From an uncultured Kiritimatiellota bacterium (lineage in GTDB: Bacteria > Verrucomicrobiota > Kiritimatiellia > RFP12 > DVOR01), in NCBI GenBank assembly GCA_944391065.1, contig CALXSH010000003.1, positions 7,871-71,870 of the forward strand: a DNA stretch of 64,000 nucleotides, in the 5' to 3' direction. Shown here in pieces: positions 2,060-25,362 of this stretch. The position numbers and the translations under genes were made by a program. Position 1 is the first letter of the stretch, and each line of letters opens with the position of its first letter. The notes beneath the pieces were generated by a model, which searched no databases, had not been told where the DNA came from, and worked only from the letters and a program-made list of their open reading frames with translations.

Positions 2060-2063
2060 GGGT

Positions 2064-2540: not shown

Positions 2541-2542
2541 GC

Positions 2543-2845
2543 ATGACGGCGTGGCTTTTTGAGGCGCTGATGCTGCTGGCTTTCGGCTGCAGCTGGCCTG
2601 CCTCCATCGCCAAATCACTCCGGACGCGGTTCGTGCGGGGGAAGTCGCCGCTTTTTATGGTGATCGTCATCCTGGGGTACTGCTGCGGCATCCTTCACAA
2701 GCTCATCAATCCGGCGGCGCCCGACGCGCCGTTGCTGGCGCGCCATGTGCTGTGGCTCTATGTGGCTGATCTGCTGCTGGTGGCGACGGATCTGACGCTT
2801 TACTTCCTGTTCCGCCGGAACGCGGAGCCGCGGGGGGCGCGCTGA
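2543..2845 (+). CDS. Small hypothetical membrane protein (2-3 TM)
   Basis: 100 aa hydrophobic ORF, tightly packed between ExbD and the next gene (stop overlaps next start at 2845). High GC3. Confidence 0.4.
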   Translation: MTAWLFEALMLLAFGCSWPASIAKSLRTRFVRGKSPLFMVIVILGYCCGILHKLINPAAPDAPLLARHVLWLYVADLLLVATDLTLYFLFRRNAEPRGAR

Positions 2846-4414: not shown

Positions 4415-4422
4415 GGGGTGGT

Positions 4423-5493: not shown

Positions 5494-5494
5494 G

Positions 5495-7941: not shown

Positions 7942-7960
7942 CGGGCGGGTCCTCGGCAGT

Positions 7961-8458
7961 TTACCAACGCAGAATCAGGGTTTCGTCCGGGCGGTTCTTG
8001 GCGTGGTAGATTTCCAGGTAGGTGGGCGCAATGGTTTTGACGTAAAGATAGAAGGTGTAGCGGTCTTCGGAGGCGGCCGCGGTCCGTGAGGCGGCCTGTT
8101 TCCGGCCGCCGTCTCGGAGGACGCGGACCTGGTCGCCCTCGCGGACGAGGGTCGGCTCTTCCTCCTCGCTCATGCGGATCAGGGCGGAGGGGGCGGTGCC
8201 GTCGCCCTCCGGGACGGCGATGGCCAGGATGCGGAACCCCGCGGGGATGTCTCCGAGGGCGGTCCGCACCAGGCCGGTACCGGGCATCTCGGGGTCGCCG
8301 GTGTCGCCCGTGCGGGGGGTGAAGGGGTCGACCAGGCCCGTCTCGGGGTTGCCGTCGGCATCGCGGAGGGGCTGCGGCGGCCCGGAGAGGGGAAGTGCGG
8401 CGCCCAGCGGGGCCAGCGGGCCGAGCGCAAGCATCAGGGCAAGAGAGAAGCGGTTCAT
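7961..8458 (-). CDS. Hypothetical secreted protein at the PilP/GspC position of the pilus operon
   Basis: 165 aa. Signal peptide MNRFSLALMLALGPLAPLGAA, Pro/Gly-rich linker, beta-rich C-terminal domain. Encoded between the PilC-like and secretin genes. Confidence 0.4.
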   Translation of the reverse strand: MNRFSLALMLALGPLAPLGAALPLSGPPQPLRDADGNPETGLVDPFTPRTGDTGDPEMPGTGLVRTALGDIPAGFRILAIAVPEGDGTAPSALIRMSEEEEPTLVREGDQVRVLRDGGRKQAASRTAAASEDRYTFYLYVKTIAPTYLEIYHAKNRPDETLILRW

Positions 8459-8474
8459 GCGGATTCCTTTCGGG

Positions 8475-11176: not shown

Positions 11177-11997
11177 CGCGTGTTCACCTGCAGGGTAAAG
11201 GTCATGCGCAGGGCGCTCTCACGGACGTCCGGGTCGCGCGAGACGGAAAATCCGCAGAGGTGGTAGGCCGGTTTGCGGCAGGACTCCTCCACCAGGAAGC
11301 GGAACATGTCGCGGAAGTCTCCCTCCACCGTGAAGACGATCGATTCGGTCGCGAAAGGCGGCTTTGCCGGGGCCGCCGCACGGGGTGCGGGCGCGGCTTT
11401 GGCGGCGGCCTGGCGCTGCCGGGCGTATTCCGCCTCGGCCGCCTTCATCTGCGCGATTTTCTTCTGGGCATCGCGGAGAAACTCGGCCTGCATCGATTTG
11501 TCGAGGCCGGCCGCGACCTGCCGGATGCGGCGCTCGTACTCCGCCGCGGAGGGGGGCGCGGCGTCTGCCTTCGGTCCGGCGGAGCCGGACCTGCCGGAGC
11601 GGGCGGCGGCCGGCTGCGCGGCGGCGACGGAGACGGTGCTGGCGACGATGCGCAGGCGGTGCCGGGTCAGGGTGCGGTCCAGCGCGTGCTTGGTCTCCAG
11701 AACGGCCTCCGGTCCCGTCGGGATCGGGGCGAAGCCGGCCTCTGCGACCTCCTTCCGCAGATCCTCCAGGCGCGTCTTCAGGGCGGCCGTCCGGCGGTCG
11801 AGAGAGGCGGGAAGGTCGGGGCTGAGCATCCGGAGTTCCTCCAGATGGGCAGCCTGCCGGGCGCGCTCAGGGGCGTATTCGCGCTCCTGCCTGCGGAGTT
11901 CGCCCCGCCACAGAAAGGCCGATACCGTGCCGCAGACGGCCAGGGAGGCCGCGAGCCAGTGCCAGCTGTTAGTTTTTGCAAGAAATCCGAGATTCAT
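11173..11997 (-). CDS. GspM/PilO-like bitopic membrane protein (single N-terminal TM, coiled-coil, Ala/Pro-rich linker, C-terminal domain)
   Basis: Start MNLGFLAKTN at 11997 (ATG overlaps the upstream stop, atga at 11994-11997). TM WLAASLAVCGTVSAFLW. Position between the GspL-like gene and the ATPase gene. This is the C-terminal part of a longer 703-aa ORF in a frame that is otherwise an antisense shadow. Confidence 0.5.
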   Translation of the reverse strand: MNLGFLAKTNSWHWLAASLAVCGTVSAFLWRGELRRQEREYAPERARQAAHLEELRMLSPDLPASLDRRTAALKTRLEDLRKEVAEAGFAPIPTGPEAVLETKHALDRTLTRHRLRIVASTVSVAAAQPAAARSGRSGSAGPKADAAPPSAAEYERRIRQVAAGLDKSMQAEFLRDAQKKIAQMKAAEAEYARQRQAAAKAAPAPRAAAPAKPPFATESIVFTVEGDFRDMFRFLVEESCRKPAYHLCGFSVSRDPDVRESALRMTFTLQVNTR

Positions 11998-13340
11998 GGC
12001 TGCTCTCCCAGACGAGTGTAATCCAGCGTGTAGACAAAGCGCAGCTGGGGCATGCCTTCGGCGTCGGCGGCCTTTGTGACGGAGGTCTCGGCCACGCGCA
12101 GCCCCTCCTTGGCCGCGAAGTCCAGCAGGGCGGCCTCCAGTCGGACGCCCTCTTCGGAATCGGCAAAGGTGCCCTTGGCCGTCACCCGGCCGCCCGTATC
12201 CTCCAGCGACTCCAGCAGCATCGTGGGGCCGGCGTGGCGGCAGAAGAAATAGGCGGCGTGGACATAGGCCGCCAGCGGCCGGCGCCGGTCCGCCAGAAAG
12301 CGCTGCAGCGACTCCTCTTCGGCGAGGGCTTTCCGGGCGGCCTCCTCCCGGGCGCGTGCGCTCCGGACGGCCTTCTCCAGCGGCAGATACTGCGCCGCGT
12401 CGGCCCGGTAACGCCCGGTGTCGGCGCGCATGCGGGCATCCGCCGCCCATCCGCAGAGGAAGGGGGCCGCCAGCAGGATGACGCACGGCACCGCGATCCA
12501 GGCGTGCGAAAAGCGCTTGCGCGGCTCGTAGGGATTTTCGAGCGGCACGCGGCTTCCGGCACGGTTGGGGCGGGCCTCCGCCGTCAGACGGACGGCCTCG
12601 GCCAGGAGCGGTTCGCAGGGCGTGGTCAGGACGGATTCGTAGCCGGCGCGCAGCGTCAGCCCCTCGGCCAATACCAGCGCCCCGGCATCGTTGCCCAGGG
12701 CAATCATGCGCACGGGCGAGGCCGGCGCGATGCCCCGGACCGCGCGGGTGAAGCGCGCGAGCCATCCGGCGGCGTCGGCCGCGGCATGGCGGAGACCGCC
12801 CGAGAGCACCACGGGGAGCTCCGGCTCCGGAGGGACGGCCAGCGTCTGGCTCTGGCTGAGCAGAATCAGCGCCTTCCCGCCCGGGCGGCCGAGGCTCCAG
12901 GCGGCCAGGCAGGCCAGCTCCAGCGAGGCGACGCCGCCGAAGCGGAGCCCGGCCGCGGCGGTGCGCTCCGCCAGTGCCAGCACGGTCTCCCCGGCAAAGA
13001 CGCTTACCAGCGTGGCACTCCCGCGGCCGCCGCCGAGCGAAATGCCCATGCAGAGCAGCGAGGCCGGATCGGCGCCCGACAGGTCGGCGGCCTCCTGGGC
13101 CATCAGCGCCTGACGTTCGCTCCTGCGCAGGCCGGCGGGAAGCGCCGCATCCATGCGGCGCAGATCGCCCGAAATCAGATAACGGACGGAACGGCGCGAG
13201 ACGGCCAGATTGGCCAGCCAATCCGGCGGCGGTGTGTCGGGCGTTCCCGGCCGGGGCTCTTCGGGTGCGTCGGGGCGGATCCATCGGGTGCCGTCATAGA
13301 GCAGGACGGCGGGCTTCAATATGCGTTTCGGTCTGGCCAT
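11994..13340 (-). CDS. GspL-like / PilM-PilN fusion-like protein (cytoplasmic actin-like domain, one TM, periplasmic coiled-coil domain)
   Basis: 448 aa. N-terminal region with a PilM/GspL-like beta-strand-rich fold (LLYDGTRWIRP...ATLVSVFAGETVLALAE). TM AWIAVPCVILLAAPFLCGWAA at about residue 280. C-terminal coiled-coil/periplasmic region. Directly downstream of the pilin genes. Confidence 0.55.
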   Translation of the reverse strand: MARPKRILKPAVLLYDGTRWIRPDAPEEPRPGTPDTPPPDWLANLAVSRRSVRYLISGDLRRMDAALPAGLRRSERQALMAQEAADLSGADPASLLCMGISLGGGRGSATLVSVFAGETVLALAERTAAAGLRFGGVASLELACLAAWSLGRPGGKALILLSQSQTLAVPPEPELPVVLSGGLRHAAADAAGWLARFTRAVRGIAPASPVRMIALGNDAGALVLAEGLTLRAGYESVLTTPCEPLLAEAVRLTAEARPNRAGSRVPLENPYEPRKRFSHAWIAVPCVILLAAPFLCGWAADARMRADTGRYRADAAQYLPLEKAVRSARAREEAARKALAEEESLQRFLADRRRPLAAYVHAAYFFCRHAGPTMLLESLEDTGGRVTAKGTFADSEEGVRLEAALLDFAAKEGLRVAETSVTKAADAEGMPQLRFVYTLDYTRLGEQP

Positions 13341-13344
13341 GGCT

Positions 13345-14370
13345 TCAGGGAGTCGGATAGGCGGTGTGGGGATGCAGGGTGAGAGAAAGGACGTTGACGC
13401 CCGGGCGCAGCAGCAGATACTGCGGCGGCGCGGCCAACGCCCCGCCGGCCGCCGTGGAGGCGCAGACGTAGACGGCGCGCAGGCCGTGGGTGAGCCCCTC
13501 GGCTGCCGTCAGCGAGTCGGCGTTGGCCGCCGCGTAATACCGGCAGGCCAGCGCGACAGTCGGGTCGCCGGTCTCGGGGACGGTAAATTCCGGCTGCCAG
13601 ACGAACACATGAAGCTTGGTGACGGCCGCGCCGTCGGAGGTTTTGGCCCGGACGGCCAGCGAGACACCGGGCGCCCCGACGGGAAAGGTCAGGTCGCGGT
13701 CCTGCCAGGCCACGGCGGCGCCGGCGGCATCCTCCGTGCGGTCACGGCCGCGGCTCACAAGCGCCGTCAGCAATCCGGAGGCCGCGTCGGTCTCCGCCTC
13801 CCAGCGGCCGCCGAAGCCGTCGCGCAGGATCGGCACCGCGACGTTGGGATTGTCCGAAGCCGCCTCCGTGTCCAAGGCGCTGCCTTCGCAGTAAGGTCCC
13901 CGCCAGCCGGCCCCCAGGGAAACCTTGGGGAAGCGGTCGGCGAAGTCCTCGAAGGACGTCAGTTCGGCGGCGTCATAAGCCGGCACCGTGGCGGAGGAGG
14001 CAAGGTCCGGCGGAAGATCCGAGGTGCGCACGGCATACGCCGGCAGCGCGGCCACCGCCGCGGACGCAACGGGTCGGGGATTGCCCAGCGCGTCCTCCTC
14101 GGGCGACTTCCTGAGGAAGGCATTGCCGAAAAGCAGGCAGAGCTCCTCTGCGGAGGCCGGTGCACGGCCGAGGTCGGAGACAAAGCTCAGCCCATCGGCG
14201 CGCCGCAGGGCCTCGGCCATGGCTTCGGCGTCGCGGGCGGTGCGTTCGGCGCGGGCGCGTTCGCGGAGGGCCGAGGCTTGCGTGCCGACGGCCACGGCCA
14301 GGCCGGCCAGAATGGCCAGAACCACCAAGAGCTCCACCAGGGTCATGCCCCGACGCGACGCTTCACGCAT
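13345..14370 (-). CDS. Prepilin-type N-terminal cleavage/methylation domain protein (large pilin/pseudopilin, about 341 aa)
   Basis: Start MREASRRG at 14370 with GGAGG RBS. Class III signal motif RRG|MTLVELLVVLAILAGLAVA (Gly-1, Glu+5). Confidence 0.7.
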   Translation of the reverse strand: MREASRRGMTLVELLVVLAILAGLAVAVGTQASALRERARAERTARDAEAMAEALRRADGLSFVSDLGRAPASAEELCLLFGNAFLRKSPEEDALGNPRPVASAAVAALPAYAVRTSDLPPDLASSATVPAYDAAELTSFEDFADRFPKVSLGAGWRGPYCEGSALDTEAASDNPNVAVPILRDGFGGRWEAETDAASGLLTALVSRGRDRTEDAAGAAVAWQDRDLTFPVGAPGVSLAVRAKTSDGAAVTKLHVFVWQPEFTVPETGDPTVALACRYYAAANADSLTAAEGLTHGLRAVYVCASTAAGGALAAPPQYLLLRPGVNVLSLTLHPHTAYPTP

Positions 14371-14371
14371 C

Positions 14372-15235
14372 TTATTGCCTCCAGAGATCAAGATTGAGCA
14401 GCTCCACGACATAGAGCCCGGTTGACGGATCGTAGGTCCGCTCCAGGGCCCCCGTGGTCAGGTTCAGCGGATACCCGTACCGCGCGTCGCCGGAATTCCG
14501 CTCGCCCATGCGGCGGTTGCCGGTCAGCAGGCCCAGTCCGGTGCGCTCGTCGCCGCTGCCCTCGACCGTGAATGTCTGCCACTTCGCGGGCTCCTCGGCG
14601 CAGACCAGAAAGAGACGGCGGTAGACCGGCTCGGCGAGGTCGTCCGCATCGTTGCAGTGTTCGTAGTAGACCACGCGGTAAAGGCCTTCGTGGCGCGTAG
14701 CCGGCTGCGGCAGCACGACGCCGGACGACTCGCCGTAAAAATCGCCCGTCTGCGCCGCGACCGTGCCGGCCGAAAGGTAGGGCCCCTGCCATCCTTCGCC
14801 CGTCACCGGGTCGAAGCCCCCGAAGACGACGAAGTCGGCGTCCTCCAGGCGCGTGTCGTCCTCCGAGACGGAGGGTTGCAGGAGGGGCCAGAGACCGTAG
14901 CGCTCGTAGAACTCGACCATGCCGTAAGTGCGGTCGCCCGTGGTGGGCGTGTCGCCACTTCTGAAGGTGCCCAAGAAGTCGCCCGAGGGGAAAATCTCGG
15001 AATCTTTGGGCGCGTGGAGGCCGGCGAGCAGACGGGGCTGGCAGTCGGCGTAAAACCGCGCAAAGGCATCGCGGATGCCGCCCATCTCCCGGACGGTCAC
15101 CTGCCGCCGGGCCCGCGTCACCAGATCATGCCCGTAGGTGACGGCCACGCCCGCGCCGACCACCGCGACGATGGCGACGACGACGAGCAGTTCAATCAGG
15201 GTAAATCCGGCGCGTCCGGAGGAGGGGAAGATCAT
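14372..15235 (-). CDS. Prepilin-type N-terminal cleavage/methylation domain protein (about 287 aa; alternative start at 15265)
   Basis: Class III signal SSGRAG|FTLIELLVVVAIVAVVGAGVAVTY. Stop TAA at 14372-14374 abuts the next pilin start. The longer start MNPYQTRASAM at 15265 would abut the terminator of the preceding gene. Confidence 0.7.
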   Translation of the reverse strand: MIFPSSGRAGFTLIELLVVVAIVAVVGAGVAVTYGHDLVTRARRQVTVREMGGIRDAFARFYADCQPRLLAGLHAPKDSEIFPSGDFLGTFRSGDTPTTGDRTYGMVEFYERYGLWPLLQPSVSEDDTRLEDADFVVFGGFDPVTGEGWQGPYLSAGTVAAQTGDFYGESSGVVLPQPATRHEGLYRVVYYEHCNDADDLAEPVYRRLFLVCAEEPAKWQTFTVEGSGDERTGLGLLTGNRRMGERNSGDARYGYPLNLTTGALERTYDPSTGLYVVELLNLDLWRQ

Positions 15236-15271
15236 GGCTGAGGCCCTTGTCTGATACGGATTCAAAAAAGG

Positions 15272-15312
15272 CCCCGGCGGGAATTGGAGCGGCCCCGCCG
15301 GGGCCGGGACTC
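15272..15312 (-). terminator. Rho-independent terminator after the first (largest) pilin gene
   Basis: On the minus strand: GGCCCCGGCGGG-loop-CCCGCCGGGGCC followed by TTTTTT. Lies between the pilin gene ending at 15320 and the next pilin gene. Confidence 0.6.
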
Positions 15313-15319
15313 ATCTTAT

Positions 15320-16522
15320 TCAGTCCTTCAGTTTGGATTCGTCACTGATGTAGTTGTCGCGGAGCGCGGCGGCAGAGTAGCCCTGCGGGGAGAGGACGCA
15401 GGCCACGGAGGCGCCGTCGCCGGTGTTGGTCATGCTGTTGGTCGCCTGCATCGGGACCTTGATGACCGCCAGGTAGCGGCTGTAGACCGAGGCTTCCTGA
15501 TCCTGACGCTTGCCGTAGGCCGGATTGTCGAGGCGCACGGCACGGCCGTCATTGATCGAGGCAAAGCGCCCCAGCCCCATCACCACCAGGTAGTATTCCT
15601 TGCCGGCGGCAAGCTCTCTGTCGTAATCCTTTGTCGGGTCAGCCACCTGCTCGGGGGTGAGGCCGCAGTTGGAGATGATCTCGGCGGTCAGGTTCATCGG
15701 CATCGTGACGGATCCCATCGGCCCCATGGACATGCTGGCACCGCCGCCGGGATAGATGAAGCAGAGTCTGGCGAGAATATCGGCTTCGCTAATGGCCTCT
15801 GCCGATTCAATGGCTGCGTTGAGCTGGTCAAGCGAGGTGAATGTTGCGTTCAGGCCACTGCCGGTATCGTTTACAGTCTGGGTTCCAGCCGTTGCGGCGC
15901 TTCCGCCTTCCTTCCAGTCCTCACGCAATTTGTCGGCGTTTTCTATCAGGTAATTGGCCTGATCTTTGGTGTAAGGCGTGGCGTCGGAGTCGAGCGTGCA
16001 GAGTGTTTTGGAGGTGTCGACGCCGGCACCCATCATGTTGGTGGCGAAGGTCGAGTCGTTGGCGCTTGAGACGGGTTCCTCTTCCGTTCCGACGCGGTGT
16101 TTGTAAACGCGGGTGAGGCCGGACGAGGCCAGAACGTCAATAACCTGTTTGGGGGCAGCCTGTGCCATGGCGGTGTATCCCATGGGGCCGCTCAGACCCA
16201 TGCCGGAGCGAGACATCGGCGTCACGTTGCCCAGCGTGGTGCCGTCAACCTCGTCGGGCATCTGGTGGTACATGTCGCCATTTTCGTCGATCAGGGAGTC
16301 GAGGCCGTCGGGGAGTTTGCCGTCATTGATGAAACTCCAGTTGGCAATGGCTTTCTGGATGGTGCCGATGTCCGACATTTCCATGGCGGTCTTGGCCTTG
16401 TCGTCCATGTTGCGGTAGGTGACGGCGACGCCGGCGCCGATGACGGCGATGATGGCGACGACGACGAGGAGTTCGATGAGGGTGAAGCCCGCTTTGCGGG
16501 GGTTCTTTTTGCCAATATGCAT
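15320..16522 (-). CDS. Prepilin-type N-terminal cleavage/methylation domain protein, candidate major subunit (about 400 aa)
   Basis: Start MHIGKKNPRKAG|FTLIELLVVVAIIAVIGAGVAVTY at 16522. First gene of the cluster and followed by its own terminator, the classic major-pilin arrangement. Ser/Thr/Gly/Asp-rich C-terminal domain. Confidence 0.7.
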   Translation of the reverse strand: MHIGKKNPRKAGFTLIELLVVVAIIAVIGAGVAVTYRNMDDKAKTAMEMSDIGTIQKAIANWSFINDGKLPDGLDSLIDENGDMYHQMPDEVDGTTLGNVTPMSRSGMGLSGPMGYTAMAQAAPKQVIDVLASSGLTRVYKHRVGTEEEPVSSANDSTFATNMMGAGVDTSKTLCTLDSDATPYTKDQANYLIENADKLREDWKEGGSAATAGTQTVNDTGSGLNATFTSLDQLNAAIESAEAISEADILARLCFIYPGGGASMSMGPMGSVTMPMNLTAEIISNCGLTPEQVADPTKDYDRELAAGKEYYLVVMGLGRFASINDGRAVRLDNPAYGKRQDQEASVYSRYLAVIKVPMQATNSMTNTGDGASVACVLSPQGYSAAALRDNYISDESKLKD

Positions 16523-16596
16523 GATAACAGTCCTTGTTGGTTGGGTCAGTGTGCGCCTCACGCGCATCGGTGGGTGTCCGGGATTTCCGGGGGGAT

Positions 16597-16890
16597 TCAG
16601 GTTCGGTCCCTTTCCCTCAAAGGGCACCGTGATTCGTGGCAGGAACCGGCCGCGTCGGCGGCCGTGTTCCGAAAATCGACGACGAAGCGCCATTCGCGTC
16701 CGCAGCGGACGATGAATTCCTTCTGACGCCGGGTCAGGATGCGCATGTCGAGTTCGAGCCGGCCCCATCCGTCGTGCGTCAGGAGTTCGTCGAGGAGCGC
16801 CGAGAGGCGGTGCCGGAGGCGGCGCACGGCCGGGTCGCGGAGGATGTCGCCGCCGTCGGCAGGGGAAGGATCGGGCAGGCCTTCGGACAT
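16597..16890 (-). CDS. Small hypothetical protein (97 aa)
   Basis: High-GC3 ORF filling the gap between the flavodoxin gene (ends 16900) and the pilin gene. No recognisable motif. Confidence 0.35.
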   Translation of the reverse strand: MSEGLPDPSPADGGDILRDPAVRRLRHRLSALLDELLTHDGWGRLELDMRILTRRQKEFIVRCGREWRFVVDFRNTAADAAGSCHESRCPLRERDRT

Positions 16891-16899
16891 GGCGTATCC

Positions 16900-17412
16900 T
16901 CAGCGGGAGGCTTTGGCGAAGGCTTCCCGGGCGGCGGCCGCGGCGGCTTTCAGGTCGGCTTCGTCGGGGTGGAGGGCGGCTTTGGCCCAGCGGGCTTCGG
17001 CCTCCGGGGTGGGGGAGTGGGGGCCGCCGGCGGGCTGCTTGCGCATCCACGCGATGAGCTTGGGGTCGATGGCGCCCTGGCACCAGACGATGCCGAGCTG
17101 CTCGGTCCCTTCGCCGTAGACGGCCGCGGCGCGTTCGGCGCAGGTGCGGGCGTGCTCGGAGTCGGGGTCCGCACCGAGGGTGAAGAAGGTGAAGACCTTC
17201 TTGCCGACGATGCGCTTCATGTAGTCGGCGGCTTCGGCGTCGGGACCGCCTTTGTCGACCCAGAAGCCGAGGGCGACAAAGTCGTAGCCGGCGGGGTCCG
17301 GGGCCGTCCGGACCGAATGGCAGGCGGTGCCTTCGGGCAGAACGGCGTGGATGGCTTCGGCAACTTTGCGGGTGTTGCCGGTGAGGGTGGAGTAAACAAC
17401 GAGCGCTTTCAT
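16900..17412 (-). CDS. Flavodoxin (short-chain, FMN-binding)
   Basis: N-terminal flavodoxin signature MKALVVYSTLTGNTRKVAE. About 170 aa. Start overlaps the ECF ATPase stop (4 nt). Confidence 0.8.
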   Translation of the reverse strand: MKALVVYSTLTGNTRKVAEAIHAVLPEGTACHSVRTAPDPAGYDFVALGFWVDKGGPDAEAADYMKRIVGKKVFTFFTLGADPDSEHARTCAERAAAVYGEGTEQLGIVWCQGAIDPKLIAWMRKQPAGGPHSPTPEAEARWAKAALHPDEADLKAAAAAAREAFAKASR

Positions 17413-18887
17413 GCGGTCTCCTTATTGGGGGTGAATGTCAGGGTGGAAAGGGGGGCTGCGACGGTGAGGCGGCACTGGGCGACGCGGGCCAGGAGCTCCA
17501 GATCGTGGGTGATGAGGAGGACGGTGCCGCCGCCGCGGGCAAAGGCGGCGAGCTCGTCGGCGATGATGCGCATGTTGCGCCCGTCGAGACCGCTGGTGGG
17601 TTCGTCCAGGATCAGCAGGGTGGGGCGCTTCATGAGGGCGCAGGCGACGACGAGGCGCTGCTTTTCGCCGCCGGAGAGGGAGTGGGGGTGGCGGTCGGCA
17701 AGATGGGTCAGGCCGAAGGTGGCGAGCAGGCGGTCGGCCTGGGCGCCGCGCTCCTCCCGGGGGACGCCGCGCGGGGCGGAGTAGAGAAGTTCGTCCCGGA
17801 CGGTGCGCATATAGAGCTGGATGTCCATCTGCTGCATGACAAAGGCAGCCTGCTCGCGGATCAGACGCCGGGAGAGGCGAAGCCCGCCGTAGAGGAGCTC
17901 TCCCTCCGCGGGGCGCGAGAGGCCGCAGAGGAGCCGGGCCAGCGTGGTCTTGCCGGCACCGTTGGCGCCGACGACGGCGGTGACGGCGCCGCGCGGCAGG
18001 CTTGCCGAGAAGTCCCGGAAAATCCAGCGGTGGCGCCTGCCGTAGCGGAAGGAGAGGCCGCGCACCTCGACGGCGGGCAGGCCGAAGTCGGCGGCCTCGG
18101 GCAGTTCGGGACGGCCGACGTCGGTGCTCCGAAGCCCCCAGCGCGCGACGTCGGGATGGGCGGCGAGGCTGTCCAGAAGGTCCCTGCCGCCGGGTGTGCG
18201 TTTGGTGCTGAGGACGGGGCGCCCGTGCGCGAGGACCAGCAGCCGGTCCAGCACGCCGCGCAGCCAGTAGAGGCGGTGGTCGACGATGACGAGCGTCACG
18301 CCGAGGGACTTGAGCCGGAGGCAGAGGGCGGCCAGCTCCTCGGTGGCCTCGGGGGAGAGGTTGGCCGTCGGCTCGTCCATCACGACGAGGTCGGCGCGGG
18401 CGGCAATCACGGAGGCGAGGACGGCCTTCTGCTTCTCGCCGGAGGAGAGGCCGAAGACCGAGCGCGCGGCCAGATCGGTCAGGTCGAGCACGCGCAGGGC
18501 TTCGCCGACGCGCTCAAGGATTTCCGCGCGGGGGCGGCACTGCCATTCGAGGGTGAGGGCGACCTCTTCCTCGACGGTGGTGGCCATGAACTGCTCGTCG
18601 GGATCCTGGAGCACGGTGCCGATGCAGCGCGAGAGGCGCTCCAGCGGCGCGGGGCAGTCTATGCCGCAGACGGTCAGCCGGCCCTCGGGGGTGCCTTTGA
18701 AGTGGTTGGGGATGAGGCCGTTGAGCAGGCGCAGGAGGGTCGATTTGCCGCAGCCGCTGGCACCGGTGACGAGCATGGCCTCGCCGCGGCGCAGCCGGAA
18801 GGAAACATCCGAAAGGGCAGGTTCCCGGCAGAAGGGATAGCGGTAGGCGAGGTGCTCGGCCTCAATCACGACGGGGGGCTTATTCAT
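17409..18887 (-). CDS. ECF transporter energy-coupling ATPase, fused duplicated A1-A2 (two ABC ATPase domains)
   Basis: 492 aa. Two Walker A motifs (GASGCGKST and GANGAGKTT), two ABC signatures (LSSGEKQ and LSGGEKQ), two Walker B/D-loop regions (VVMDEPTANL, LILDEPTSGLD). Confidence 0.9.
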   Translation of the reverse strand: MNKPPVVIEAEHLAYRYPFCREPALSDVSFRLRRGEAMLVTGASGCGKSTLLRLLNGLIPNHFKGTPEGRLTVCGIDCPAPLERLSRCIGTVLQDPDEQFMATTVEEEVALTLEWQCRPRAEILERVGEALRVLDLTDLAARSVFGLSSGEKQKAVLASVIAARADLVVMDEPTANLSPEATEELAALCLRLKSLGVTLVIVDHRLYWLRGVLDRLLVLAHGRPVLSTKRTPGGRDLLDSLAAHPDVARWGLRSTDVGRPELPEAADFGLPAVEVRGLSFRYGRRHRWIFRDFSASLPRGAVTAVVGANGAGKTTLARLLCGLSRPAEGELLYGGLRLSRRLIREQAAFVMQQMDIQLYMRTVRDELLYSAPRGVPREERGAQADRLLATFGLTHLADRHPHSLSGGEKQRLVVACALMKRPTLLILDEPTSGLDGRNMRIIADELAAFARGGGTVLLITHDLELLARVAQCRLTVAAPLSTLTFTPNKETA

Positions 18888-19731
18888 GGGGTGCCTCGGA
18901 TGCGGTTTGGTTCATGGCGGCGGGCCCGTAGGGGACGGCCGGCACCAGGATCTGCCAGACGGTCAGCGCGGCCAGAAGGATGACCGTGGCGGCCGCCACG
19001 GCGGCGTCGCGGCGGCCGAAGGAGAGCGTGCGCAGCTGGGAGGGACGCCGGGCGTAGCCGACGCGCTTCATCTCGGCGGCCACGGCCAGATGGTCGGCCA
19101 TGCGCAGCGTGCGCACCGTCAGCGGCACGGCCGTCAGCCGGAGACTCTGCAGCGGATGGATCAGCGCCGCCCCGAAGCTCACGGAGAAGCCGCGCATCCG
19201 GACCGCGTCGCGCAGCCTGCGGATGACATCCACGAATTCCGGCACAAACCGGCAGAAGACCATCAGCGGCAGAAAGATGACGCGCGGCAGCCGGAGGCTC
19301 TTCATGGCGCCGACGAAGCGCTGCACCGAGAAGGTCAGGCCAAGGGCAAGCAGGACGTTGAGCGAGGGCACCATGCGCAGGAAGGGCGTGTGGAAATTGC
19401 CCAGCATGGCCGGTTTCAGCCGGGCCACCGGGGCCTCCCAGGCCGTACCTGCCACCAGTGCTTCGCCGACGGCAAAGGACCCCCAGACGATGCCCACGGT
19501 AAAGAGCATCATCACCCCCACCGCCAGGTAGGCCACCAGCGCCACGCGGTACCTGCGTGCGGAGAGCAGCAGATAGGCCAGCGAGAGCGCCCCCAGCGTC
19601 AGGAGCGGCCCTGTGCCGCTGAGGTACACCGCCACCCCGGAGACAAGCAGGGAGACGAAGAGCCGCGTCCGGATGTCCAGCGGATCGGTGCGGCGGGCGT
19701 CGGGGTCATACTTCGCGGATGATGCCTGCAT
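18880..19731 (-). CDS. ECF transporter transmembrane T component (EcfT/CbiQ family)
   Basis: 283 aa polytopic membrane protein with the conserved T-component Ala-Arg-rich coupling helices (ARRYRVALVAY..., RLRDAVRMRG). Overlaps neighbours on both sides. Confidence 0.8.
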   Translation of the reverse strand: MQASSAKYDPDARRTDPLDIRTRLFVSLLVSGVAVYLSGTGPLLTLGALSLAYLLLSARRYRVALVAYLAVGVMMLFTVGIVWGSFAVGEALVAGTAWEAPVARLKPAMLGNFHTPFLRMVPSLNVLLALGLTFSVQRFVGAMKSLRLPRVIFLPLMVFCRFVPEFVDVIRRLRDAVRMRGFSVSFGAALIHPLQSLRLTAVPLTVRTLRMADHLAVAAEMKRVGYARRPSQLRTLSFGRRDAAVAAATVILLAALTVWQILVPAVPYGPAAMNQTASEAPHE

Positions 19732-20380
19732 GGCGCAGCTCCTTTACGAATTTGGCACCGCAGGGCAGCCCGATGAGGAGGCACCCCAGATAACCGAAGG
19801 TGACAATCGCGGCTCCCACGCCGACCATGCCGACGTTTTCGCGCGCCATCAGAAACGAGAGGGCGATGCTGAGTATGCGCCCGAAGGCGTCGTAAACCGC
19901 CACGCCCAGCAGCACGGCGCCGATCCTGCGGTAGCCGCCGCAGCAGGCGATCAGCCCGTCGGCCGCCAGCGCCCCCAGCAGATAGAAGGGCAGCGTCCCC
20001 ACCATGATGCCGCCGGTCATCAGGAAGGAGATGACCTGCGCCACCAGCGTGTAGAGCGCCAGCGTCCCGAATCGGCGCACGCGCGCCAGCATCACCACCA
20101 GCAGGGCCGTCGCGATCCCGTTCTTCAGCAGCAGCGTCACCGGGTTCATCCCTCCGCCGAGCAGCGCGACCAGCAGCGAGGCGGCCTTGCCCAGCGCCGT
20201 AAAGAGCCCGACGACGATGAGCGACTCGGTGTCCCAATAGAATCCCCCGCGCAGGAGGCCTCCCGGACGGTCATTGCCAACCCCGGCGAGAGACGCGGGG
20301 GAGGCCTCCGGCGAGGGGGGAGGAGAGAAAGTGTTAGTTTTGGCTAATGCTTGCATCTGTCGTTTTTCCTGTCGGTTCAT
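19706..20380 (-). CDS. ECF transporter substrate-specific S component (substrate unknown)
   Basis: 224 aa with an about 45-aa hydrophilic N-extension and a small 5-6 TM hydrophobic core. Immediately upstream of the T and A genes. Confidence 0.6.
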   Translation of the reverse strand: MNRQEKRQMQALAKTNTFSPPPSPEASPASLAGVGNDRPGGLLRGGFYWDTESLIVVGLFTALGKAASLLVALLGGGMNPVTLLLKNGIATALLVVMLARVRRFGTLALYTLVAQVISFLMTGGIMVGTLPFYLLGALAADGLIACCGGYRRIGAVLLGVAVYDAFGRILSIALSFLMARENVGMVGVGAAIVTFGYLGCLLIGLPCGAKFVKELRHAGIIREV

Positions 20381-20393
20381 GGGCGGTGCGGAA

Positions 20394-22154
20394 TCAGGGG
20401 GTTCGCGGGCGGTTTGCGGCGGCCTCGAGGAGGGCTCTGTATTTGCCGCCGCGGGCCATGAGGGCGTCGTGGGAGCCCTGCTCGGCGATGCGCCCGTGCT
20501 CGAGATAGCAGATGTGCGAGGCGTGGCGGATGGTGGTGAGCCGGTGGGCGATGATCAGGGTGGTGCGGCCCCTGGAGAGGCGCCCGAGAGCTTCCTGAAC
20601 GGCTGCCTCGGCGAAGGTGTCAAGGGCACTGGTGGCTTCGTCCAGGATGAGGATGGGCGGATTTTTGAGAAAGAGTCTGGCGATGGCGATGCGCTGGGCC
20701 TGTCCGCCGGAGAGGCGCAGGCCGTGTTCGCCCACCGGGGCATCGAGGCCTGCGGGAAGCGAGCGGACGAAGGTCTCCAGATCGGCCTGCGCGAGCGCGG
20801 CATAGAGGGCCGCGTCATCGGCGGCGGGGTCGCCCAGCAGGAGATTTTCGCGGATGGTGCCGTCGAAGAGGAAGGGGCGCTGGGCAACGATGCCGATGGC
20901 CTCGCGCAGGGCACGCTTGGGAATGGTGGCGGTGTCGCGGCCGTCGAGCAGGATTTTCCCCGCGGTGGGCTCATAGAAGCGGGGAATGAGGGCGGCCAGG
21001 GTGCTCTTGCCCGAGCCGCTGGGCCCGACGAGCGCGCAGACGCTGCCGGCAGCGAGGTCGAGGGCCGGAATGTCGAGCACGTCGCGGTCCGTGCCGGGGT
21101 AGCGGAAGCGGAGCCCGCGGAAGGCGACGTCGCCGCGGATGTGCGCCGGCGGTTCGGCATCGGCGGCCGCGTCGCATTCGGGCTCCTGCGCGACAAACTC
21201 GGCGTAGCGCCGGTAGCCGACCAGCCCCTGCTGGAAGAGGTCGAGCAGGCCGACGATGCGGAGTATCGGCGCGGTCACGTAGCGCGAGTACATGAAGAAG
21301 GCGAAGACCTGCGGCAGCGTCGCCGCATCGCAGGCCACCATCCAGGCCCCCAGCGCAATGTACATCAGCGAGTAGCCTTCCAGCAGCAGCTGCGTGCCGG
21401 AGAAAAGCGGGGCGTAGAGCGCGGAGACTTTCTCAAAAGAACGGCGGAAGCGCCCGTTGGCCTCGCGGAAGGCCGCACGGGCGCGTTCTTCCCCCGTGTA
21501 GCTCTTGATTTCGCGGATGCCCTGGACGGCATTCTCGACATGGGCGGCAAAGGCGGCCGCCTCGGCGCGGTTTTCGCGCCAGGCCGTGTGGATCCGCCGC
21601 TGGAAGCATCCGGCAAAGAAGAGGATGAAGGGGATCGGCAGCAGCGTGAGGCCGGCCATGGCCGGATTGACCCAGAACATCACCGCAAAGGCCCCCGCCA
21701 GCGTCAGACCGATCTCCAGCATGGCCTCCGGCAGCAGGTGCGCCGTGGAGCCCACCAGCCGCAGGTCGGAGGTGATGCGGCTGAGCACCTCGCCCGTCTT
21801 GGTCCTGTCGAAATAGGCAAAGGGCAGCCCCTGCAGGCGGTCAAAGAAATGCCCGCGCAGCGCGGCCTCAATGCGGAAGCCCAGCCACTGCCCGCACAGC
21901 GTCCCGCCCCATTCCAGCGCGGCGGCCGCGAGCGCCAGCCCGGCAAAAAGGGCCGCAGCCCAGGCCGTCGCGTGCAGATCCCCCGCCGGCAGATAGACCT
22001 GAAAGACCCGCAGCGCCAGCGCCGGAATCGCCAGACGCGCCGCCGCGCGCAGCACGACCGCGGTCAGATCCAGCGTCAGCAGCCGCCGCTGCGCCAGATA
22101 ATGGCCGCAGAGCGTGCGGAGCGCACCGAAGAACCGTGGGGAATGTGCGGACAT
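20394..22154 (-). CDS. ABC exporter, fused TMD-NBD half-transporter (MsbA/type I exporter family)
   Basis: Start MSAHSPRF at 22154. Six TM N-terminal domain. NBD with Walker A GPSGSGKST, Q-loop, signature LSGGQAQRIAIAR, Walker B ILILDEATSALD, H-loop IIAHRL. The longer 819-aa ORF has an Arg/Pro-rich N-extension that is likely spurious. Confidence 0.85.
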   Translation of the reverse strand: MSAHSPRFFGALRTLCGHYLAQRRLLTLDLTAVVLRAAARLAIPALALRVFQVYLPAGDLHATAWAAALFAGLALAAAALEWGGTLCGQWLGFRIEAALRGHFFDRLQGLPFAYFDRTKTGEVLSRITSDLRLVGSTAHLLPEAMLEIGLTLAGAFAVMFWVNPAMAGLTLLPIPFILFFAGCFQRRIHTAWRENRAEAAAFAAHVENAVQGIREIKSYTGEERARAAFREANGRFRRSFEKVSALYAPLFSGTQLLLEGYSLMYIALGAWMVACDAATLPQVFAFFMYSRYVTAPILRIVGLLDLFQQGLVGYRRYAEFVAQEPECDAAADAEPPAHIRGDVAFRGLRFRYPGTDRDVLDIPALDLAAGSVCALVGPSGSGKSTLAALIPRFYEPTAGKILLDGRDTATIPKRALREAIGIVAQRPFLFDGTIRENLLLGDPAADDAALYAALAQADLETFVRSLPAGLDAPVGEHGLRLSGGQAQRIAIARLFLKNPPILILDEATSALDTFAEAAVQEALGRLSRGRTTLIIAHRLTTIRHASHICYLEHGRIAEQGSHDALMARGGKYRALLEAAANRPRTP

Positions 22155-22210
22155 GATGACTGATCTTTCCGATGGGGAGAGGGGGATGCCCGGACCTGCC
22201 GGGCAGACAT

Positions 22211-23518
22211 TCAGCGGGCAGCCTTTCCGAATCCCGAGAGGATGAAGCCGCAGAGGCGCGAGCAGAGTTTGGGCTGGAAATATTCGCCCATGCGCGTCAG
22301 CCGGAAGACGCCGTCCGTGCCGCGTGTCCAGAGGCCGGCCGCAGTCCAGTTTTCGCCCAGCGCGCCGAAATCGGTTTCGGGGAAGTCGGCGGGATTCAGG
22401 AAGCTGCGCTCGAGCTGATCGGCGAGGCGGCCCTTCAGCGCCAGGAAAGGCGGGCGCGGCATCACCTGGGCCAACGGTTTGCGTCCGGCCTCGACGGCTT
22501 CGCGGTAGGCCTCCGTGTCGGCGGTCTGCATGAAGCCCCAGGAGCCGAGGAAGCCGCCGGCACCGCCGCCGAAGGGGAGAATTTCGGCGCCGGTCTTGGT
22601 CCAGTGGTTGTAGCGGTTGCGTTCGTTCCCGTTGCGCCGCCAGTGCGTGCAGGAGAGCTGTTCCCAGCCGTGCGCGGCCAGCCAGTCGGAGGCCCCGGCG
22701 TGGCGGCGGATGCGCTCCTCCTCGCTCCAGCCGGAGCCCTCGCGTTCCATTCGGCGGGCCAGGGGCAGGCCGGGGAAGAGTTTCAGCGAGTAGAGATCCA
22801 CGCCGTCGAGGGGGGACGCCTCGGCGACGGTCCGGATGTTCTCCTCCATCCACTCCTCCTGGGTCTGCCCCGGAAGCCCATAAATCAGATCGGCCACCAG
22901 CGCCGTCTCTCCGCCCGCAATCTCACGGACGCGGAAGAGGCGCTCCAGCAGCTCTTCGCGGGACTGACGGCGGCCGAGCGAACGCCGCAGGTCGGTCTGG
23001 AAACTCTGGATGCCAAAGGAAAAGCGGTTTGCACCGGCCTCGCAGCAGGCCCGGACGCGTTCGTCGTCGAAGGCATAGAGGCGTCCTTCGACCGTGAATT
23101 CGACGTCGGGCGTAAGATTGAAGTGCGCGTAAATGAAGCGAATCAGGCGCCCAAGCGAACGGGCGGAGAGCGCCGTCGGCGTGCCGCCGCCGAAATACAC
23201 CACCTCAATCGGGGCCGTGAAGACGCCGCGGGAAACCTCGCGCTCCATCTCCCGGATCAGCAGATCGGTGTAAGACTCCAGCGCCTCTTCCGTCGCAGCC
23301 TGCCGGTAAAACCCGCAGAACGAACAGCGGCTGATGCAGAACGGCACGTGAACATACAGCATCTGGCGGACTCCCGGCGTCTGCCGGGCTTCGGCCCAGA
23401 CCGTCTGCGCGTCCGGCGTGCCGGATGATCCGCCCATATCGCCGTGCGGCGGCGTCGCTGCGGATGAGAGGGCAGCGATAACCTCTTCCCTGGTACCGGG
23501 CAACAGAAACGGATTCAT
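22211..23518 (-). CDS. HemN-family radical SAM protein (oxygen-independent coproporphyrinogen-III oxidase HemN / heme chaperone HemW / ChuW-like; subfamily unresolved)
   Basis: Start MNPFLLPG at 23518. Radical SAM cluster motif YVHVPFCISRCSFCGF. GGGTP SAM-binding motif (VVYFGGGTPTAL). HemN_C-like C-terminal domain. About 435 aa. Confidence 0.8.
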   Translation of the reverse strand: MNPFLLPGTREEVIAALSSAATPPHGDMGGSSGTPDAQTVWAEARQTPGVRQMLYVHVPFCISRCSFCGFYRQAATEEALESYTDLLIREMEREVSRGVFTAPIEVVYFGGGTPTALSARSLGRLIRFIYAHFNLTPDVEFTVEGRLYAFDDERVRACCEAGANRFSFGIQSFQTDLRRSLGRRQSREELLERLFRVREIAGGETALVADLIYGLPGQTQEEWMEENIRTVAEASPLDGVDLYSLKLFPGLPLARRMEREGSGWSEEERIRRHAGASDWLAAHGWEQLSCTHWRRNGNERNRYNHWTKTGAEILPFGGGAGGFLGSWGFMQTADTEAYREAVEAGRKPLAQVMPRPPFLALKGRLADQLERSFLNPADFPETDFGALGENWTAAGLWTRGTDGVFRLTRMGEYFQPKLCSRLCGFILSGFGKAAR

Positions 23519-23885
23519 ACGATTCTCGGTTTGCGTTGTCCGATCGCGCGGGTCCCCATGAAGCGGCACCGAGGTGCCTGTTTCATCCGTTTGACCGAAT
23601 AAAAAACGGCGCTATATTAGACGAGGCTAATGGTAAAGTCAAGAATTATTTTCACGAACTAATACTTTCTTCCTTTTCCGCTTCGACCGGCTGCCGCCCG
23701 CCCCTCCGCTCTTCCGGAATAGGGGATGCCTTCAGGCCGCATGAGCGTCAGCGGCCCCAAAGGGCAAGGAGCCCCCGGCTTCCGGCTTCGTGTTGCCTGC
23801 CCCGCGCGAAGGACGGACTGAGATTCCGCTTTACTCCGACCGCGGCTCTCCCCACCCGTGACATCGGCACAAGGCCTAGTCGACC

Positions 23886-23977
23886 TCTTGGGCTATAGCC
23901 GTAGCGCTTCTTGGGCTATAGCCGTAGCGCTTCTTGGGCTATAGCCGTAGCATCTCTTGGGCTATAGCCGTAGCGGT
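23886..23977. repeat. Tandem array of four 23-bp direct repeats, each carrying the palindrome GGCTATAGCC
   Basis: Units TCTTGGGCTATAGCCGTAGCGCT at 23886, 23909, 23932 and 23955. Palindromes at 23891, 23914, 23937 and 23960, exactly 23 bp apart. The last two units have slightly diverged spacers. Confidence 0.9.
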
Positions 23978-24091
23978 CGGACTTTGCCCAACACGATGTT
24001 GGGGTTGGCCCGGGATTTGGTTCGTTTTGGGCAGCATCCTTGTCCGTCACGGGTGCCTGCGCGCCGTTGCTTCCCCCGGCGGCGCCGTATC

Positions 24092-24100
24092 TGCTATAAT
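24092..24100 (+). promoter_or_regulatory. Extended -10 sigma70-like promoter element (TGcTATAAT) upstream of the DUF3127 gene
   Basis: TGCTATAAT at 24092-24100, about 35 nt upstream of the ATG at 24135. No good -35 is present, consistent with an extended -10 promoter. Confidence 0.4.
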
Positions 24101-24134
24101 GGCGGCGAGTGCAAACCCTTACAGGATTGATGAT

Positions 24135-24497
24135 ATGAGCAAATCGTACGAATTGGACGGCACGCTGAAGGAAATCATGGAGACCAGGACCTTCGAGAAG
24201 AGCGGATTCACGAAGCGTGAATTCGTCGTGACCGACGAGGATGACCGCTATCCGCAGCACATCAAGTTTAACGTGACGCGCAACAACTGCGCCCTTCTGG
24301 ACCGCTTTGCCGTCGGCGACCGCATCCGCGTGACCTTCTCCATCCGCGGCAATCAGTGGCAGGACCGCTATTTTGTCGACCTGAACGCCTTCAAGCTCGA
24401 AAAGCTCGATGTCGACGGGTCCACCAGCGAGCCGATTCCGCAGCCTGACGAGACCTTTGTCGCCGATACCATCAACGATGAAGACATGCCCTTCTGA
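24135..24497 (+). CDS. DUF3127 domain protein with acidic C-terminal tail ending DEDMPF
   Basis: ATG at 24135, in frame with ORF 23934-24497. 120 aa. The core (FTKREFVVTDEDDRYPQHIKFNVTRNNCALLDRFAVGDRIRVTFSIRGNQWQDRYF) matches the DUF3127 family as I recall it. The C-terminal 30 aa are acidic and end in ...INDEDMPF. Confidence 0.6.
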   Translation: MSKSYELDGTLKEIMETRTFEKSGFTKREFVVTDEDDRYPQHIKFNVTRNNCALLDRFAVGDRIRVTFSIRGNQWQDRYFVDLNAFKLEKLDVDGSTSEPIPQPDETFVADTINDEDMPF

Positions 24498-24510
24498 GGC
24501 ATCCTCGCCG

Positions 24511-25362
24511 ATGACGCTGGGGCGGCTCCTGGAGGCAGGGGCCGCCTATCTGTGCCGTCACGGCTTCGACGGCGCCGAGGCACGCTGTCAGAGCGGCATT
24601 CTGATTGCCGAGGCGACGGGGGTGCCGGCGCTGCGTCTGGCGACGGCGGGAGACCGGGCCGCCACGGCGGCCCAGGTGGAGCGGCTGCGGCAGGAATTCC
24701 GGCGCGTGGCCTTCGGCGAGCCGATTCAGTATGTCGTCGGGCATTGGCCCTTTCATGACATTGAGCTCAAAACCGACGCCCGGGCACTGATTCCGCGGCC
24801 CGAGACCGAAGAGCTTGTCGGGCTGGTGCTCCGTTCGCCGCAGTGGGCGCAGGCCCGCGACATAGCCGACATCGGCACCGGCACGGGGGCGATCGTCCTG
24901 GCGCTGGCCCATGCCGCGCGCGGCACCCCGAAATCCTTCACGGCGGTCGATCTCTCGCCGGAGGCTCTCGCGCTGGCCCGCGAAAACGCCGCCGCGCTGG
25001 ATCTGCGGGTGCGTTTTCTGCAGGGGGAGGGCTGTGCGCCTCTGGCGCCCGGGAGCACGGACATTCTGGTCTCCAATCCGCCTTACATAGCCTCCCGCAC
25101 CGTGGACACGCTCGACCCCCGGGTCCGCGACCATGAGCCGCGCCTGGCGCTTGACGGCGGGGAGGACGGCCTCGATGCGGTGCGTTCCATTCTGCTCGGG
25201 GCCACGCAGGTGCTGCGGCCGGGAGGACGGATTTTCTTCGAAATCGGCGACGAGCAGGGACTCTCCGTCCAGCGTCTGCTGGAACGGGCCGGCTATACCG
25301 ATGTCGGCCTCGGTCGCGATGCCGCCGGGCATGACCGCTTCGCCTGGGGCACGCTGCTGTGA
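24511..25362 (+). CDS. prmC: Release factor glutamine N5-methyltransferase PrmC (HemK)
   Basis: ATG at 24511. SAM-binding motif DIGTGTGAIVLALA. Catalytic NPPY motif (VSNPPYIAS). About 283 aa. Confidence 0.85.
   Translation: MTLGRLLEAGAAYLCRHGFDGAEARCQSGILIAEATGVPALRLATAGDRAATAAQVERLRQEFRRVAFGEPIQYVVGHWPFHDIELKTDARALIPRPETEELVGLVLRSPQWAQARDIADIGTGTGAIVLALAHAARGTPKSFTAVDLSPEALALARENAAALDLRVRFLQGEGCAPLAPGSTDILVSNPPYIASRTVDTLDPRVRDHEPRLALDGGEDGLDAVRSILLGATQVLRPGGRIFFEIGDEQGLSVQRLLERAGYTDVGLGRDAAGHDRFAWGTLL

Follow-up and report, generated by a model that had tools for sequence, protein, structure and literature searches.

Several described systems come close to the locus with which this paper deals, a block of genes at positions 16597-23518 of a 64-kb stretch of DNA (the window) from an uncultured Kiritimatiellota bacterium of the gut (GenBank assembly GCA_944391065.1, contig CALXSH010000003.1, positions 7,871 to 71,870), in which a radical S-adenosylmethionine (SAM) protein, an ATP-binding cassette (ABC) exporter, an energy-coupling factor (ECF) importer and a flavodoxin are encoded side by side. 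The first is the hmuTRUVWF operon of Fusobacterium nucleatum, where HmuW, a ChuW-type enzyme, is encoded together with HmuF, a flavodoxin of the Flavodoxin_3 type (PMC10404700). HmuF and its paralog FldH bind both flavin mononucleotide (FMN) and heme, with His134 of a helical cap as the heme ligand; they pass heme to HmuW and reduce anaerobilin (PMC10404700). F. nucleatum and the other published clusters have a TonB-dependent receptor and HmuTUV, a type II ABC importer with a periplasmic binding protein (PMC10404700). The window shares the pair of ChuW-type enzyme and flavodoxin with hmuTRUVWF, but an ECF importer would stand at the inner membrane, the operon encodes neither a receptor nor a binding protein, and it has an ABCB exporter. 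The second is the Chu system of Escherichia coli, whose ChuW is 41% identical to the radical SAM protein of the window and falls into the same clade, and modules of other phyla that are related to that of the window have ChuX/HutX equivalogs, and TonB-dependent receptors for which the heme type is the best match. The window itself has none of ChuX, ChuY, ChuS, ChuT, ChuU and ChuV; the flavodoxin would replace the functions of ChuX and ChuY there, and the ECF importer those of ChuTUV.

As for ECF transporters, LhaSTA of Staphylococcus lugdunensis has been shown experimentally to be specific for heme (PMC7299338), and it is the only such case that came up in our literature search, most subscription journals being outside the reach of this search. 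LhaSTA may serve as an analogy, since it is a dedicated S-T-A transporter in a locus for heme and iron acquisition, but its host is Gram-positive, its genes lie inside the isd locus with a separate gene for a single ATPase, and no ChuW or flavodoxin gene is linked to them. Another possible analogy is the shr-shp-sia heme operon of Streptococcus pyogenes, which is metal-regulated and whose function is given as annotation; there, the ABC genes siaD and siaE stand beside siaF, siaG and siaH, the genes for ECF S, T and A (PMC6593403). The host is again Gram-positive, two ABC genes are found rather than one, and neither ChuW nor a flavodoxin is encoded. The S component of the window is related to the MptD/Trep_Strep putative S components (PF09605, TIGR02185) as a divergent subfamily that scores under the NCBIfam cut-off, and within the literature that could be searched no substrate is assigned to that family. 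Nor did the search, with the same reach, find a paper that ties an ECF transporter to anaerobilin, ChuX or TonB-dependent heme uptake; the string "ECF" in one paper on ChuW and HutW stands for EcFldA/EcFpr and not for an ECF transporter (PMC10114669). The enzymes of the window are of known kinds (ChuW/HutW/HmuW, HmuF/FldH and ECF importers), and it is their combination with an ECF importer, seen again in many anaerobes, that we did not find described in the searched literature.

The block consists of seven co-oriented open reading frames (ORFs), all on the minus strand. From the upstream end, they encode a radical SAM protein of the ChuW/HutW type, a class C methyltransferase resembling anaerobilin synthase (22211-23518, 435 aa); an ABCB-type half-transporter with the exporter fold (20394-22154, 586 aa); an ECF S component of the Trep_Strep/MptD family (19706-20380 and 224 aa if started at M1, 19706-20356 and 216 aa if started at M9); an ECF T component of the CbiQ family (18880-19731, 283 aa); a fused EcfA1-EcfA2 ATPase (17409-18887, 492 aa); a flavodoxin which is predicted to bind heme in the manner of HmuF and FldH (16900-17412, 170 aa); and a protein of 97 aa (16597-16890). 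The coordinates give overlaps of 26 nt between S and T, 8 nt between T and the ATPase, and 4 nt between the ATPase and the flavodoxin, and the remaining gaps are 56 nt, 13-37 nt and 9 nt. The G+C content (GC) of the window is about 67%, and therefore long spurious ORFs are common in it; the called frames show a GC of 0.77-0.90 at third positions and of about 0.5 at second positions, and genes called independently on six further contigs of this species, which come from ENA metagenomes and the NCBI metagenome-assembled genome GCA_949291805.1, are the same seven (435, 586, 216, 283, 492, 170 and 97 aa). Thus, the tightly packed block that the original prediction had described from the sequence alone does exist where it was placed, and the families named then (HemN superfamily, ABC exporter, S, T, fused ATPase and flavodoxin) are upheld by profile matches.

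A sigma-70-like promoter (TTGACT, a spacer of 17 nt, TAATAT) was located by a consensus scan at 23614-23642 on the minus strand, about 95 nt 5′ of the start codon of the radical SAM gene, and both hexamers align 5′ of the orthologous gene in related species (loci L010-L017; related loci are cited by such numbers below). This position fits an operon whose first gene is that for the radical SAM protein. In the gaps that separate the operon genes, the scan detected no terminator-like site; a promoter-like site lies between the 97-aa ORF and the first pseudopilin gene of the next cluster. At its upstream border the block meets a divergent intergenic region of 616 nt, followed by plus-strand genes for DUF3127, PrmC and DUF5672 proteins, and at its downstream border a co-oriented cluster resembling a type II secretion system (T2SS), with pseudopilins from 16522 downwards and T2SS E, F and secretin genes at 6124-11218. 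We conclude that the operon comprises six genes, from the radical SAM gene through the flavodoxin gene, and that the 97-aa ORF is not part of it. What the operon does was judged from sequence, predicted structure and gene context.

The radical SAM protein matches TIGR04107, the family of ChuW/HutW radical SAM methyltransferases of anaerobic heme degradation, with 392.8 bits over profile positions 20-417 of 419, which is 2.6 times the score of the next family: HemW, HemN and HemZ reach 150.8, 114.3 and 113.9 bits. Identity as HemN (TIGR00538, cut-off 324.95) or as HemW (cut-off 205.4) is rejected on these scores, and for HemN also on the absence of the fourth Cys. In BLASTP comparison, ChuW of E. 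coli O157:H7 (ECs_4383) is 41% identical over 320 aa (246 bits), as compared with 110 bits for HemN and 98 bits for HemW of E. coli. The cluster motif is C61-x3-C65-x2-C68-G-F70 (C-ISR-C-SF-C-G-F), with Phe where HemN has its fourth Cys; C61, C65, C68 and the GGGTP motif for SAM binding (G110-P114) are invariant among 34 aligned proteins encoded in such modules, and the Pfam domain HemN_C is undetected at E <= 0.01. TIGR04107 is the best family for all the 34 sampled module-linked proteins, the best E-value being 2.5e-155. In a neighbour-joining tree, a simple distance tree without support values, the protein of the window, 33 other module-linked proteins and E. coli ChuW make up one clade, within which the window protein groups with its Kiritimatiellota orthologs, and HemW and HemN lie outside. 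Placement in the ChuW/HutW branch had been one of the options raised originally; the placement has now been carried out, and the firm clustering with housekeeping HemN or HemW for which it was examined did not occur. The protein can thus be assigned to the ChuW/HutW branch of presumed anaerobilin synthases. With a score just under the ChuW/HutW naming cut-off, its gene would probably be mislabelled by automatic pipelines as one for coproporphyrinogen oxidase.

The flavodoxin was originally thought of as the reductant of the radical SAM enzyme. A flavodoxin it is, with 164.8 bits to PF12641 (Flavodoxin_3), but the role of a generic reductant appears too narrow, as its match to FldH and a conserved His point to the HmuF/FldH type. 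The best sequence match among solved structures is 8G64, the heme-bound FldH of F. nucleatum (PMC10404700), with an E-value of 8.6e-14 over residues 1-154 of 170; the alignment spans the region of the helical cap, so that a cap would be expected here too. The heme ligand of FldH, His134, has its counterpart in His132, and this alignment column holds His in 52 and Tyr in 6 of 58 sequences (57 module-linked flavodoxins and FldH). The FMN contacts Asn13, Lys54 and His87 align with Asn13, Lys56 and His89 of FldH, Asn13 being invariant. A match to BilS, the partner of bilirubin reductase, stays below the cut-off at 89.8 bits. The flavodoxin is therefore best regarded as a predicted partner of HmuF/FldH type, which would traffic heme and reduce anaerobilin.

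The genes for S, T and the fused ATPase can be read as those of a dedicated group-I ECF importer. The S component matches PF09605 (Trep_Strep) with 36.5 bits against a gathering score of 28.7. Its AlphaFold model, built with 39 homologs, has six helices and a mean predicted local distance difference test score (pLDDT) of 86.7, and in a Foldseek search of the PDB the top match is 5EDL (probability 1.00), followed by 5KBW and 3RLB, all of them ECF S components, TmRibU and ThiT included; the E-values of these fold matches are weak, 7e-3 and worse, as is usual for the divergent S fold. A sequence search of the PDB found no match for S even at E <= 10. Two motifs, GGGMNP and ELRHAGI(I/V)RE, are conserved in the family, and these, together with the linkage to ChuW, appear to define a divergent subfamily of Trep_Strep/MptD proteins to which the S component of the window belongs. 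Its N-terminal extension, noted originally as unusual, is real, since no ATG, GTG or TTG codon is found between codon 9 and the conserved core at about codon 47. It is lineage-specific and not a feature of the family: most relatives have 180-186 aa, with the extension absent or different, and it is predicted to be disordered in the AlphaFold model and not conserved across the family. The T component matches PF02361 (CbiQ) with 47 bits against a gathering score of 25, and its gene comes after S in all the related loci. In the ATPase of 492 aa, two ABC_tran domains are found, TIGR04520 and TIGR04521 each match as two stretches, and the fusion is kept in all the related loci.

How far does this arrangement extend beyond the window? 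Homologs of S occur in Kiritimatiellia, Desulfobacterota and Sutterellaceae, among other groups. An alignment of S was searched against one genome per species, which gave relatives in 201 species; the 80 best loci were retained, and the module genes were mapped onto them by tblastn with fixed thresholds, by which divergent genes may be missed. In the first three contexts inspected, a core of radical SAM, S, T, fused ATPase and Flavodoxin_3 genes is common: a contig of Sutterella also carries a TonB-dependent receptor, ChuX_HutX and ExbB-ExbD-TonB, the chromosome of a Desulfobacter has a receptor and ExbBD-TonB besides, and on a 1.2-Mb contig, whose S is 65% identical to that of the window, a receptor and ExbBD accompany the core. 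For counting, a well-flanked set was taken, i.e., 57 loci in which S is flanked by at least 4 kb upstream and 5 kb downstream, 17 of them Kiritimatiellota-like and 40 from elsewhere. A ChuW-like gene lies within 7 kb in 53 of the 57, and 9-10 kb off in three of the remaining four; a flavodoxin gene is found in 49. The 40 loci outside Kiritimatiellota carry a TonB-dependent receptor (35 loci), ChuX/HutX (31) and ExbB/ExbD (25). Among the ChuX-like proteins sampled, two pass the HutX equivalog cut-off, and TonB-hemin is the best family for three of four sampled receptors, at scores below its cut-off. The linkage between the radical SAM gene and S is kept across at least five phyla. The module of radical SAM protein, S, T, fused ATPase and flavodoxin is conserved across phyla, and it carries the standard Gram-negative toolkit for heme utilisation, with ECF in the place of HmuTUV/ChuTUV; on this ground, the gene context strongly suggests that heme is the substrate of S. 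A predicted heme-utilisation locus with an ECF step at the inner membrane is thus widespread in anaerobic diderm bacteria, and the window would be a lineage-specific version of it, to which an ABCB exporter has been added and from which the receptor, ExbBD and HutX genes are absent.

In one of these loci, that of Desulfoluna butyratoxydans (L074), genes for HemB (delta-aminolevulinate dehydratase) and a radical SAM/SPASM protein lie at 3508-5952, directly upstream of the heme-uptake module, so that genes for the biosynthesis and the degradation of heme adjoin.

Taken together, we consider it likely that the operon serves the acquisition of heme under anaerobic conditions and its degradation, by which iron is freed. 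Periplasmic heme would be bound by the dedicated S component of Trep_Strep/MptD type and imported by the group-I ECF transporter made of S, the CbiQ-type T component and the fused A1A2 ATPase. In the cytoplasm, the HmuF/FldH-type flavodoxin, with FMN and a His-ligated heme site, would take the heme and present it to the enzyme of ChuW/HutW/HmuW type. This radical SAM methyltransferase would open the porphyrin ring without oxygen to release Fe2+ and anaerobilin, after which the flavodoxin would reduce the toxic anaerobilin. Most likely, the co-transcribed ABCB half-transporter would then export the reduced linear tetrapyrrole, or excess heme. The route of heme across the outer membrane is presumed, as the window contains no TonB-dependent receptor. 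A dedicated module for uptake and processing of a tetrapyrrole, with anaerobic heme degradation as an example, was what the original prediction had proposed, and the family assignments and comparative genomics support it.

Several observations weigh against this reading. No TonB-dependent receptor, ChuX/HutX or ChuY is found in the 64 kb of the window, and its only ExbB/ExbD-like genes lie at a distance of about 15 kb from the heme module. With TIGR04107, the radical SAM protein falls 7 bits short of the curated equivalog cut-off of 400 and must hence be taken as a divergent member of ChuW/HutW. The S component reaches 24 bits with NCBIfam MptD (TIGR02185), far under the cut-off of 76.45; a check of S against its family profiles had been suggested at the outset, and it thus came out above the gathering score for PF09605 and below the cut-off for TIGR02185. 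The exporter is of a generic ABCB type, of no diagnostic subfamily, and one subgroup of Kiritimatiellota has the exporter and lacks the flavodoxin. ChuW and HutW accept metal-free porphyrins in vitro (PMC10114669), so that a substrate other than heme is conceivable. Finally, a scan of the window and of the upstream regions of its relatives with the E. coli consensus found no Fur box near the operon, the best match having 13 of 19 bases and lying away from it.

Two side observations may be set down here. The ExbB/TolQ-like and ExbD/TolR-like pair, the only energising genes of TonB/Tol type in the window, follows a gene for a class-V aminotransferase (cysteine desulfurase-like) in a plus-strand stretch at 186-4414 and is itself followed by two ORFs without a family match and the gene for an HhH-GPD glycosylase. 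The subgroup without the flavodoxin (the Kiritimatiellota-like loci L020-L023, L028, L029 and L065) has the order radical SAM-S-T-fused ATPase-ABC exporter and lacks a flavodoxin gene within 10 kb; in these genomes, either the role of HmuF falls to another protein or the exporter makes the reduction of anaerobilin dispensable.

The exporter is the part of the proposal most open to another explanation. It consists of ABC_membrane and ABC_tran domains, and its best matches among solved structures are ABCB1/ABCB19, Sav1866, TM287/288 and MsbA. It had been called MsbA-like, and the exporter fold and domains bear out this much; identity as MsbA is rejected on scores far below the cut-offs (TIGR02203, 405.9 against 602; NF008381, 283.7 against 867). 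Exporter-fold importers of iron chelates also exist, such as YbtPQ and IrtAB. The protein could be an exporter of lipids or drugs unrelated to the heme module, or an importer in the exporter fold, and it fits with such an idea that the half-transporter is generic, without a subfamily equivalog, and that it is absent from the module in L009, L010, L025 and L026 and in nearly all loci outside Kiritimatiellota. We nevertheless hold this to be unlikely. Orthologs with 64-85% identity adjoin the module in 12 of the 17 well-flanked Kiritimatiellota-like loci, and they do so in at least four positions and orientations, as would be expected of coupling and not of chance: between the radical SAM gene and S in the window; upstream and co-oriented in L016 and, with a gap, in L014; upstream and divergent in L012, L013, L015, L017 and L030; and after the ATPase, in the place of the flavodoxin, in L020-L023, L028, L029 and L065. 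Outside Kiritimatiellota, too, 7 of the 40 loci have a single ABCB half-transporter within 9 kb, that of D. butyratoxydans among them, and the heme operon of S. pyogenes pairs siaDE with siaFGH (PMC6593403). In this set of 17 loci, the exporter never occurs in the same locus as a receptor or ExbBD: all three loci with a TonB-dependent receptor and/or ExbBD genes are among the five that lack the exporter. Its retention across at least four arrangements supports a functional link between the exporter and the heme module in gut Kiritimatiellota. As to what is exported, the ChuW product is reported to be toxic when it accumulates (PMC10114669), and because of this toxicity the export of the linear tetrapyrrole, or of surplus heme, would be the most economical reading, although we only infer it.

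Heme might also be taken up for salvage as a cofactor, possibly by a heme auxotroph, the ChuW-like protein and the flavodoxin acting mainly as chaperones, traffickers or detoxifiers and not in the mining of iron. HmuF and FldH do bind and traffic heme (PMC10404700), relatives resembling HemW are heme chaperones, HemW being the second-best family of the radical SAM protein, the E. coli consensus finds no Fur box upstream, and an ECF importer would bring intact heme into the cytoplasm. Against this, the radical SAM protein belongs firmly to the ChuW/HutW clade, in which the members characterised so far are heme-degrading enzymes (PMC10404700; PMC10114669), and in other phyla the module is accompanied by TonB-dependent receptor, ExbBD-TonB and HutX genes, which are gear for iron acquisition. 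Salvage in the place of degradation is thus improbable to our judgement, and it is to be noted that the two are not mutually exclusive.

Still less probable, and indeed very doubtful, is a different tetrapyrrole as the substrate, such as metal-free porphyrins, chlorophyll-derived porphyrins, which are abundant in the guts of herbivores, or corrinoids. The in vitro acceptance of several metal-free porphyrins by ChuW and HutW (PMC10114669) would agree with it, as would the resemblance of the flavodoxin to BilS, at a score below the cut-off, and the fact that the clade of gut and rumen Kiritimatiellota lacks the heme-type receptor and HutX that modules of other phyla have. However, the His that ligates heme in FldH is conserved in the flavodoxin, and S, T, the fused ATPase and the radical SAM protein are orthologous to those of modules with HutX equivalogs and with receptors that score best as heme-type. 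An Rfam scan of 15500-25000 at E <= 1 returned only a chance match to a snoRNA, so that no riboswitch, corrinoid or other, is seen in this region. That the first gene is a housekeeping HemN or HemW beside an unrelated ECF transporter for a micronutrient, as membership in the HemN superfamily and the score below the ChuW/HutW equivalog cut-off might suggest, is scarcely credible in view of the HemN and HemW scores far under their own cut-offs, the absent fourth Cys, the grouping with ChuW in the tree and the linkage to S across at least five phyla.

The 97-aa ORF closes the co-oriented block and had been counted with the module. It is a real gene, and it should rather be assigned to the pseudopilin/T2SS-like cluster downstream. 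Its family is an unannotated one of small proteins with 296 representative clusters and the core motif HDGFG...VEMRIL.R.QKEVI..CGKQYRFVVD; Pfam and NCBIfam scans of 34 members gave nothing significant, and the predicted fold (pLDDT 79, one helix and a three-stranded sheet) has no meaningful match in the PDB. Among the close relatives of the window only L016 has it (13382-13660), and in most of the others examined (L010, L013-L015 and L026) the flavodoxin gene is followed directly by the pseudopilin cluster. In three unrelated genomes, a member of the family (L093, 7001-7219; L097, 4248-4556; L098, 5882-6127) directly precedes a pseudopilin/T2SS-like cluster, and there is no heme module in the vicinity; two further contexts, L095 on a contig of 2 kb and L096 on one of less than 1 kb, are uninformative. 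The protein may be a leader or regulator of pseudopilin clusters.

In several unrelated genomes, the pseudopilin cluster itself (6124-16522, minus strand, in the window) comes directly after iron-related genes. Its neighbours are an Fe-dependent repressor and FeoA-FeoB in L097 (763-10556), and an imelysin-like Peptidase_M75 and a P-type ATPase in L093 and L094, and its adjacency to the heme module is kept in gut Kiritimatiellota (L010, L013-L016 and L026). It is possible that this secretion-like system is tied to the acquisition of iron or heme. Two other features of the window may be recorded. A 23-bp tandem repeat in 3.9 copies occupies 23886-23975, within the intergenic stretch that separates the divergently oriented radical SAM and DUF3127 genes; its unit is TCTTGGGCTATAGCCGTAGCGCT, every copy contains the palindrome GGCTATAGCC, and the repeat is found only in contigs of the same species, where a core of 20 nt is present in three or four exact copies. 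It could be an array of protein-binding sites or a mere variable repeat. At the other end, GC falls from about 0.65 to 0.55-0.58 across 60001-64000, which may mark a foreign or non-coding segment.

What would the module mean for the bacteria that carry it? Our wider proposal, which we make tentatively and with slightly less than even confidence, is that S, T and the fused ATPase represent an undescribed and widespread family of heme-specific ECF importers, which replaces HmuTUV/ChuTUV in anaerobic diderms, acts behind a TonB-dependent heme receptor and is firmly coupled to ChuW and HmuF, and that gut Kiritimatiellota have added an ABCB exporter to make a circuit of import, degradation and export. 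The family of S, T and fused ATPase is found in Desulfovibrio, Bilophila, Sutterella, Desulfobacterales, Geobacter, spirochaetes and Kiritimatiellota, among other taxa. If the proposal is true, anaerobic Gram-negative bacteria would have a second route for heme across the inner membrane besides HmuTUV, and this route would cover gut taxa of medical interest, Bilophila, Desulfovibrio and Sutterella. It would also offer a testable case of an ECF importer behind a TonB-dependent receptor in diderm bacteria, and, in the ABCB protein of Kiritimatiellota, a candidate for exporting the toxic product that the anaerobic degradation of heme yields.

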